A DNA stretch of 12,870 bases from a virus (lineage: Duplodnaviria; Heunggongvirae; Uroviricota; Caudoviricetes): IMG/VR virus record IMGVR_UViG_2541047121_000027. One strand, given 5' to 3'. Of this stretch, positions 10,810 through 11,409 are shown in pieces. Every line of letters begins with the position of its first letter. The stretch's first letter is position 1. A program made the translations under genes and the position numbers. The notes under the pieces are model-generated. The model did no database searches. It was not told the origin of the DNA and saw only the letters and a list, made by a program, of their open reading frames with translations.

Positions 10810-11409
10810 CTTGCTGATATTCCCGATAACGCAAAATTGCGCTGGCTACATCCTCACATCTGAGGACTGTTAATCAGAAGGCCGGAATATATTCACAAAC
10901 TACGAAATTTTCGTAGTTTAATTAATGGTCAGATTAATCGCTAACCCGCTGATATTTTCGGAAACCTCAATTTGAGGAAGTCGGAAGCGTCACCCTTCAT
11001 ATTCTGAATGGTCATAATGACCACGCAGACCATCAAGGCAACCACAACGAACATCGTTACGGTTGGAGCTTTTACCCCACTGGGGGAAAGGTATTACGAT
11101 AATCATAACACCTACCGAACAGGTAAAACCCACCAGCCTGATTAACAGTTAACCGGAAAAAAAATCCGGTAGCCCCGTTATGGGGATCCCCATATCGACA
11201 TTAACGCCCCTCATGAATTGGTGCGCTTCCCCCTGGAAAGATTACCCGCCTGTATATTTCTTGTGTCTATTTGTTCCACGTTGTTTCATACAGTGCACCG
11301 AACGGTGTAGTTAATGGTGTAGTCAATTTGCTGTTTTTAGCACTTTTTGCAGTGTGGGTTGTTTAATTAAATCAATGGGTTGCCTTGCTGTGGTGATAAA
11401 AGGACATAT

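Follow-up and report, generated by a model that had tools for sequence, protein, structure and literature searches.

The non-coding right end of a probable EcCICFT073-family satellite beside phoQ: a candidate attachment arm and apparent Rha/Roi gene fragments

What lies in the 600 bp between phoQ and the last gene of the mobile island next to it, and why is roxA (ycfD), the gene that follows phoQ in E. coli K-12, not found there? The question is raised by positions 10810-11409 of a 12,870-nt stretch of viral DNA (Caudoviricetes; IMG/VR record IMGVR_UViG_2541047121_000027), to which we refer at its full length as the window. From the letters alone, the original prediction described this interval as a gene-poor junction that should hold attR, with several palindromes, no tRNA-like sequence and a P4-type integrase directed to a non-tRNA site. 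Our analysis indicates that the interval is very probably the non-coding right terminus of a satellite of helper phages, of the kind called phage-inducible chromosomal islands (PICIs), which these phages mobilise. The island belongs to the EcCICFT073 family, matches the published EcCIRM12579 (O55:H7/O157:H7) and was integrated between roxA and phoQ by a P4-type tyrosine integrase; the left part of the interval is a mosaic derived from Rha/Roi genes, and the right part is probably an arm of the phage-type attachment site (attP). We found nothing that contradicts the identity of the island or the position of its junction.

Given that the island-chromosome junction was expected in this interval, we compared positions 10700-11500 by megablast with 5426 complete E. 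coli genomes. All of them match from 11402 (phoQ) onward, and 494 (~9%) carry the whole right end. Homology to K-12 resumes at 11402, which places the breakpoint there; the interval is not native chromosome. The 10-mer GGACATATTT that starts at this position recurs at attL, so the direct repeat to be expected left of the disrupted int gene is present, and it is found as an exact core in the island-free strain SM107. The sequences read gtgaagtatGGACATATTTtatcaat at attL, gtgataaaaGGACATATTTattcatc at attR and gtgaagtatGGGCATATTTattcatc at the empty site of K-12. This specific site with its short direct repeat is the one published for the EcCICFT073 family: Table S1 of PMC6092414 lists EcCICFT073 and EcCIRM12579 (O55:H7) with the att core GGACATATTT at the ycfD-phoQ site, and the junction is in this sense already known as to island, site and core. 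Positions 10890-11085 are 100% identical in RM12579 at 1448855-1449050, so that the published right end of EcCIRM12579 (1449376) corresponds to window position 11411. The junction thus does fall where it was predicted, at the extreme right edge of the interval, with a core that runs past its last base; it follows from this position that ~592 of the 600 bp are island DNA and not a junction zone. The core ends with two bases that also open the stop codon of phoQ, which is read from the other strand, so phoQ is left unchanged. The core therefore does not lie in a tRNA gene as in tRNA-targeting P4-like elements; ARAGORN finds zero tRNA or tmRNA genes in the whole window, and the expectation of a non-tRNA target holds.

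The gene roxA is indeed absent from its K-12 position; it has not been lost. In O157:H7 strains with the same junction between int and an insertion sequence (IS) as the window, roxA is followed in turn by attL, 72 nt from the start of int, the IS and the rest of int, and it lies ~1.6 kb to the left of where the window starts. From this order we conclude that roxA has been displaced to the far side by the island and the IS (~12.5 kb). In K-12, roxA and phoQ are separated by 75 bp, and this spacer contains an 11-bp-stem hairpin (GTTAAGCATCC...GGATGCTTAAC) just before the start of roxA. The hairpin stays with roxA at attL after insertion, and phoQ therefore loses its native downstream sequence: everything beyond its stop codon is replaced by satellite DNA, and the gene is parted from the K-12 hairpin and from roxA. 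Transcription of phoPQ would then continue into the island as antisense RNA, where in K-12 it would reach the hairpin and roxA.

The remainder of the window supports the assignment to a PICI. The best match, NZ_CP030767, carries an annotated intact 11.2-kb island between roxA and phoQ, in the order int, alpA, an Icd-like gene, a RepA-type helicase, SSB, PerC, a major capsid protein, a head decoration protein, a Nu1-like 'small terminase' and a 93-aa open reading frame (ORF). From position 440 the window is 99.97% identical to this intact island. As expected of a PICI, the island is ~11 kb long, has int and alpA at its left end, reads rightward in all its genes and has a replication module of its own; AlpA and an AAA_25 helicase are detected among its proteins, and no tail or lysis genes are annotated in the intact copy. 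EcCIRM12579 and EcCICFT073 (Fillol-Salom et al. 2018, PMC6092414, and 2019, PMC6739421) share the ycfD/roxA-phoQ site, the core GGACATATTT and two lambda-type cos sites with it, together with the order int, alpA, replication genes, perC, capsid plus decoration, Nu1/Rpp-like gene and 93-aa ORF. The right end of the CFT073 island is ~80% identical to that of the window, with three units of the kind described below and different palindromes. Within the family, helper-induced excision, replication and packaging have been demonstrated experimentally for EcCICFT073 alone. In the literature searched, we found no description of the non-coding right end of EcCIRM12579 or EcCICFT073.

Unlike these published islands, the copy in the window has an IS in int, an IS3-family element that presents its inverted repeat TGAACCGCCCCGGG at its end and that we take to be IS629 from this repeat. 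In RefSeq, an IS3-family transposase adjoins int in 56 complete genomes with the identical IS-int junction, and the listed ones are mostly O157:H7. The full integrase protein contains Arm-DNA-bind_3 (PF13356, 5e-18) and Phage_integrase (1.5e-16) domains, which agrees with the P4 type proposed for it. The insertion cuts off the first ~22 codons of int, so IS629 has probably immobilised this copy of the island. The RefSeq annotation has an integrase of 404 aa whose TTG start lies at the edge of the IS, and a nearly full-length fusion protein might therefore still be made. The name SpLE2 does not apply to the island, as SpLE2 sits at cobU-yeeB and the roxA-phoQ element is listed apart from it as the 10.4-kb 'prophage 6'.

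The right part of the interval, ~11230-11401, resembles the opposite side of the core, upstream of int, and holds two tandem candidate sites for the arm-binding domain of the integrase as well as a perfect consensus for integration host factor (IHF; Table 1). When the two island ends are joined in silico to give attP, GGTGTAGTTAAT appears twice on the other arm, at +135/+147 from the core and just before the start codon of int; CFT073 has an equal arrangement of tandem repeats on both arms, and CFT073-type islands keep the IHF site beside the core as AATCAATGGCTTG. At the level of sequence, then, the island has features expected of a tyrosine-integrase attP with arm-type sites: an arm-DNA-binding domain, repeats on both arms and an IHF consensus. 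The arm is 80-93% conserved in islands with other cores (tqsA, allC, clpS), those at tqsA and clpS sharing the repeat region at ~80%. Positions 11123-11381 are 92.7% identical in the allC-site island L011, and 11123-11169 are 100% identical in the clpS-site island L009. In the tqsA and allC islands the homology ends ~20 bp short of the core; a shared arm that stops before the core is what is expected where related integrases share arm recognition and differ in core recognition. We propose that ~11230-11401 would be the left (P) arm of the attP of the excised island, with the tandem repeats binding the arm domain of the integrase and IHF bending the DNA between the repeats and the core. The junction of the excised circle would be expected to read ...GTGATAAAAGGACATATTTTATCAATTAG... 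A second exact IHF consensus, TATCAACCCGTTG, is seen inside phoQ at 11562-11574; a total of two exact matches for the window is no more than chance would give (24/200 shuffles).

The palindromes flagged by the original prediction are real, one of them exactly as described: the perfect 16-bp palindrome at 11178-11193, variants of which occur at other positions in islands L003 and L004. The palindrome at 10897-10919 proves larger than the 8-bp stem ascribed to it, and the hairpin written as ACCGGA-A7-TCCGGT starts at 11152 rather than 11150 (Table 1). By an arithmetic estimate, 600 bp would contain a perfect 8+8 palindrome ~0.009 times by chance and 11+11 arms ~0.0001 times. Positions 10890-11085 fold far more stably than shuffled sequence (z = -4.8 and -4.9 on the two strands; 0/200 shuffles as good), and 11086-11401 show no excess (z = -0.66). 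The flagged palindromes lie 210-500 bp from the core and are not att elements; they belong either to the mosaic of Rha/Roi fragments or to a module common to islands at other att sites. The hairpin at 11152-11169 is within a block that related islands at other att sites have in common, and the 23-bp palindrome may be a further derivative of the Rha motif, since its minus strand reads RKFR.

This mosaic occupies the left part of the interval, ~10807-11100, and by its sequence matches is a hairpin-rich assembly of antisense pieces that all go back to a single short region of phage genes for Rha/Roi-family regulators. The source region encodes RNFA...INxL, and its DNA reads a palindrome followed by an IHF-like motif. 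Each unit of ~45 nt begins as TAAC-NNG-YTGAT-WYTYYCG and continues with a short palindrome and NCGG; two such units are present in the window against 0.00 expected. On the minus strand their IHF-like motifs read TATCAGCAAGTTA in unit 1 and TATCAGCGGGTTA in unit 2, each with 1 mismatch to WATCAANNNNTTR. For unit 2, positions 10950-10985 are identical in 33 of 36 nt to an internal segment of roi/ant genes in many lambdoid and Shiga toxin (Stx) phages, on the opposite strand, and the minus strand of the unit reads RLPQIEVSENISGL where Roi residues 42-55 read RLPQIEVSERINNL. The palindrome of unit 1 reads on the minus strand CGCAATTTTGCG, the RNFA-coding 12-mer of canonical Rha-family genes, a link found by filtering a loose palindrome scan whose matches were mostly chance. 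A third, degenerate relic is weak by itself in tblastn (E = 3.2) and is collinear with unit 2; we dropped an alignment of it to Roi residues 6-28, as residues 40-68 fit better. No intact Rha/Roi ORF is present in the mosaic, where stretches of 18-35 aa are interrupted by stops and the conceptual translation has no match in Pfam.

We then asked how widely the units occur. In a set of 15 islands, made up of classical and capsid-forming PICIs at the phoQ, tqsA, yejO, clpS and allC sites, there are 28 distinct units, 1-6 per island and in one orientation throughout. In 22 of the 28, a perfect inverted repeat of 5 bp or more is centred 28.5-31 nt after the TAA (shuffle probability ~1.2% per unit); ~9 different palindrome sequences occur. 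The constant 13 nt of the unit are the reverse complement of WATCAANNNNTTR; this motif is perfect in 21 of the 28, and the variable positions fall in its NNNN. According to an alignment of right ends, the block 10896-11080 is common to islands with different integrases and morphogenesis modules. When one genome per species was scanned for the unit pattern, it was present solely in one Shigella flexneri genome, and the scan thus added no diversity from other genera. The literature searched contained no description of unit arrays at the right ends of satellites.

The phage genes themselves are built alike. Related-locus searches with Roi returned near-identical genes, and diverse alleles were obtained by tblastn against a phage collection. 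In six of nine coliphage roi alleles, codons 42-50 hold an inverted repeat whose arms measure 5 bp or more and whose sequence differs from one allele group to the next; codons 51-53 match the IHF consensus perfectly, again in six of the nine. Roi alleles have varied residues in place of RNFA, yet the palindrome is retained. The island units share the palindromes CCTCAAATTGAGG, TCCCCCAATGGGGGA and TTCCACAGACTGTGGAA with roi alleles and the near-palindrome CAGCCATTGGCGG with the ASU11 type, so that at least four variants are matched; a second unit variant corresponds to a different Roi-like gene, found in phiP27 and ASU11.

Two side observations concern the same coding segment. In many unrelated Rha-family genes of viral contigs (L155-L267), RNFA is written as CGCAATTTTGCG, a 5+2+5 inverted repeat, and ~12 nt further on stands the IHF-consensus-like ATCAAYNNNTTR that encodes I-N-x-L; the link between Rha genes and IHF may be written into the conserved RNFA...INxL segment. 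In 57 distinct close relatives of HK620 roi from viral contigs, third-codon variation is far lower at codons 22-53, which span the helix-turn-helix, the palindrome and the IHF motif, than at codons 56-99. An overlapping DNA element might explain this low variation, as might a boundary of recombination.

Could the interval be something other than the end of a satellite? That it is native chromosome left after a deletion of roxA, or holds a packaging (cos/pac) site of the island, has nothing in its favour beyond a first impression; the interval is absent altogether from K-12 and from the empty site with the exact core, an intact roxA is found past the far end of the island and both lambda-type cos cleavage sites (cosN) lie outside the interval, which makes this account practically negligible and rules out a cos or pac site within it. 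A small hidden gene is very improbable as well. The candidate is a 37-aa ORF on the minus strand (10941-11054) with a hydrophobic N-terminus, which might act as a type I toxin, and an alignment gives it equal length in L005. We see no Shine-Dalgarno sequence upstream of it; in L005, at ~85% DNA identity, 15 of its 37 residues are changed and silent changes are few; it measures 30 aa in CFT073-type islands, is split by insertions in L008, L009 and L012, and is annotated in none of the RefSeq records examined. It is unlikely to be a real gene. What the units do, if anything, is a more difficult question. We consider it most likely, from their pattern of occurrence, that they are maintained cis elements (protein-binding modules or antisense segments) rather than pure debris, because a single ~45-nt part of a gene has been kept and multiplied in one orientation in every island examined, with several phage alleles sampled. 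Several points weigh against this. Both units of the window carry one mismatch in the IHF motif, and an exact-match search finds none there; some unit palindromes have decayed in relatives, and one block of the mosaic (block A) is broken by insertions in several islands. Our unit search required part of the motif, so that its invariance is partly by construction, and the islands recombine, so that the 28 units are not independent samples. The palindrome coincides with codons for RNFA and the IHF-like motif with codons for I-N-x-L; constraints on the encoded protein could therefore be the source of both DNA features, and the case for selection of the palindrome as DNA is weaker for it. In the putative attP arm, the arm-type sites and the IHF site are sequence predictions. 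Finally, phage lambda is not known to have a roi or rha gene. Lambda has been published to mobilise EcCICFT073, so that, if it indeed lacks roi, a Roi-type protein cannot be required for transfer.

Among the specific explanations, neutral decay is a serious possibility, if still short of an even chance: the mosaic would be the debris of one or more Rha/Roi genes once present at the island end, persisting by linkage and by frequent recombination among islands. Its in-frame stops, its frameshifts and a conceptual translation without a Pfam match fit such a history, as do the decayed palindromes and the split block A. The simple decay of one gene does not predict, however, that a single part of it is retained in 1-6 copies of one orientation, that none of the PICIs examined, classical or capsid-forming and spread over five att sites, is without it, or that different roi alleles are the source of at least four variants. 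That the units are working modules for the binding of IHF and a helper regulator of the Roi/Rha type, by which the island would sense or titrate this regulator or block transcription from phoQ, is a possibility to which we give only slightly less weight. It would account for an IHF motif that varies only within NNNN, for the fixed distance of the palindrome centre despite so many different palindromes, for roi alleles arranged alike, in which the palindromes co-vary with the helix-turn-helix region and the IHF part is constant, and for the low third-codon variation across roi codons 22-53. The units also point toward the flanking gene, which is itself transcribed toward the island at 4 of 5 att sites. 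Against it stand the mismatched IHF motifs of the window, the chance that motif and palindrome are by-products of the RNFA...INxL codons, the non-independence of the 28 units and the mobilisation of EcCICFT073 by lambda. Two unconfirmed leads bear on such modules: Clerget and Boccard reportedly found in 1996 that HK022 Roi binds a site in its own gene next to an IHF site, and rha of phi80 and P22 inhibits phage growth in IHF mutants. We think it improbable that the units act instead as RNA, in the 3' untranslated tail of the rightward operon, where they would be antisense to helper roi/ant mRNA and silence it, with hairpins that may stabilise the 3' end. Read-through into them is plausible because the last ORF ends within unit 1, its stop codon being part of the unit, and the intrinsic terminator at cos2 is the only one predicted in 10400-11600; the segment is a run of stable local hairpins, and its 33 of 36 complementary nucleotides apply to roi mRNA of Stx and HK620-type phages, including the Stx2a phages of O157:H7. 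Folding is, however, equally strong on both strands, as expected of DNA palindromes, no Rfam family matches, and the complementarity breaks in the IHF-like part. Returning to maintained cis elements, we propose, tentatively, that classical and capsid-forming E. coli PICIs keep at their right end an array (1-6 copies) of the palindrome-plus-IHF element of helper roi/rha genes, whose copies mimic different phage alleles. With this collected library of helper-derived cis elements, and together with IHF, the satellite would sense the Roi/Rha proteins of its helpers, bind them or titrate them; alternatively, it would silence the corresponding mRNAs by antisense pairing.

Known layers of interaction between satellites and helpers include the redirection of packaging through Rpp and TerS. 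Units that are bound by IHF and Roi-type proteins, or that pair with the mRNAs of these, would add a new layer, and such a function would explain what the older observation on Roi/Rha and IHF is used for.

Comparison with other systems sets these features in context. Capsid-forming PICIs (EcCIEDL933 type; bioRxiv 10.1101/2022.09.08.507074) likewise end in a 93-aa ORF and a unit-bearing non-coding tail; they differ in having a large terminase, a full capsid module and tails of ~850 bp with up to 6 units. One of them, L012 (NZ_CP027552, 1364-1778), sits at the phoQ site, carries a large terminase and is 100% identical to window positions 11006-11420. This identity over the last 415 bp leads us to conclude that the two satellite families exchange right ends and share the att site. 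The predicted attP resembles those of P4 and lambda in its arm-binding integrase, in direct repeats on both arms and in an IHF consensus beside a short attL/attR core; its target, in contrast, is intergenic at a stop codon and not a tRNA gene, and its organisation is read from sequence. With the phage Roi/Rha genes (HK022, HK620, HK97, Stx phages; Phage_pRha plus ANT) the units share codons ~42-55, copied in antisense with at least four allele-specific palindromes, whereas the island has no intact Rha/Roi protein and has kept and multiplied only the ~45-nt part. A further likeness is to RIB/RIP elements (BIME-1), in which an IHF site is flanked by repetitive extragenic palindromic (REP) sequences at the 3' ends of E. 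coli operons. There, too, an IHF-type motif and palindromes are repeated just after the last gene of a transcription unit; the island units differ in their origin, which is coding DNA of phages, and in their restriction to satellite islands. By eye we saw no REP-type sequence in the units, and no formal REP search was made.

Table 1 Features of the right end and of the disrupted integrase, in window coordinates.
Feature	Position	Strand	Details
IS3-family element end (IS629-like), inserted at about codon 22 of int	1..439	-	ALIL/IS3 frameshift pseudoknot (94 bits); the match to the intact island begins at 440
int without its first ~22 codons, P4-type tyrosine recombinase	440..1602	+	99.97% identity to the intact island
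First cos, lambda-type cosN GGGCGGCGACCT	9585..9596	+	exact match; as published for cos1/cos2 of EcCICFT073
Second lambda-type cosN	10452..10463	-	exact match, inverted relative to the first
Last island ORF	10528..10809	+	93 aa, phrog_1561, function unassigned
Rha/Roi-derived unit 1	10807..10845	+	begins at the stop codon of the 93-aa ORF; palindrome CGCAAAATTGCG at 10830-10841
23-bp palindrome AAACTACGAAA-T-TTTCGTAGTTT	10897..10919	.	perfect 11-nt arms; kept with small changes in L004 and L005
Rha/Roi-derived unit 2	10942..10984	+	palindrome CCTCAATTTGAGG at 10965-10977
Degenerate third relic, like Roi residues 40-68	10993..11097	-	15-bp palindrome TGGTCATAATGACCA at 11009-11023; in-frame stop
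Hairpin ACCGGA-A6-TCCGGT	11152..11169	.	with the A-T pair counted, loop of 6 A; 7 A in a row
Perfect 16-bp palindrome TATGGGGATCCCCATA	11178..11193	.	11-nt arms at 11176-11197 with one mismatch; not an intrinsic terminator
Two tandem 12-bp candidate arm-type integrase sites (GGTGTAGTTAAT, GGTGTAGTCAAT)	11304..11327	+	98 and 86 bp left of the core
Perfect IHF consensus AATCAATGGGTTG, candidate attP bending site	11370..11382	+	20 bp left of the core
attR core GGACATATTT, 10 bp	11402..11411	+	overlaps 2 nt of the phoQ stop TTA
phoQ, intact	11410..12870	-	stop codon TTA at 11410-11412

The interval is as poor in genes as it had seemed, with longest ORFs of 47, 45, 44 and 37 aa on the two strands. 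Among the 15 related islands examined, 14 have the 93-aa ORF ahead of their non-coding end; L004 is without it. No intrinsic terminator (GC-rich stem plus T run) is found on either strand of 10810-11409, a scan of 10400-11600 predicts a single terminator, at cos2, and a scan of the same region for sigma-70 promoters predicts none. Rfam covariance models at E <= 1 give zero matches in the interval, to known small RNAs or to cis-regulatory families. Two small RNAs or groups of them were considered as its content and rejected: Esr41, an O157 small RNA, maps to OI-43 between z1181 and z1182, and the preprint on Pas sRNAs has none at the roxA-phoQ site.

Outside the interval, the two cosN flank a Nu1/Rpp-like gene at 9730-10272 (180 aa; Phage_Nu1 3e-23), as is characteristic of PICIs of the EcCICFT073 family; its product may act as Rpp or as a small terminase. 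An inverted repeat of 73-76 bp, ~91% identical, joins 9554-9629 to 10422-10494 and holds both cosN, and cos1 and cos2 sites of EcCICFT073 have been described in published work. As the pair is in opposite orientation, packaging could in principle start either way, including toward phoQ.

Over the whole window, Rfam gives two matches at E <= 1, the IS3 frameshift pseudoknot (ALIL) and Corona_FSE at 7262. The latter (7262-7328; 22 bits, E = 0.34) is a chance match. It falls in the gap that separates perC from the capsid operon, on a hairpin with a GC stem and T runs behind it, which resembles a terminator. Positions 2213-3157 contain an intact ORF of 314 aa with no Pfam domain, where RefSeq annotates a truncated Icd-like pseudogene; a published ortholog table lists a 314-aa protein of CFT073 and its 416-aa relative Z1835 in EcCIEDL933.

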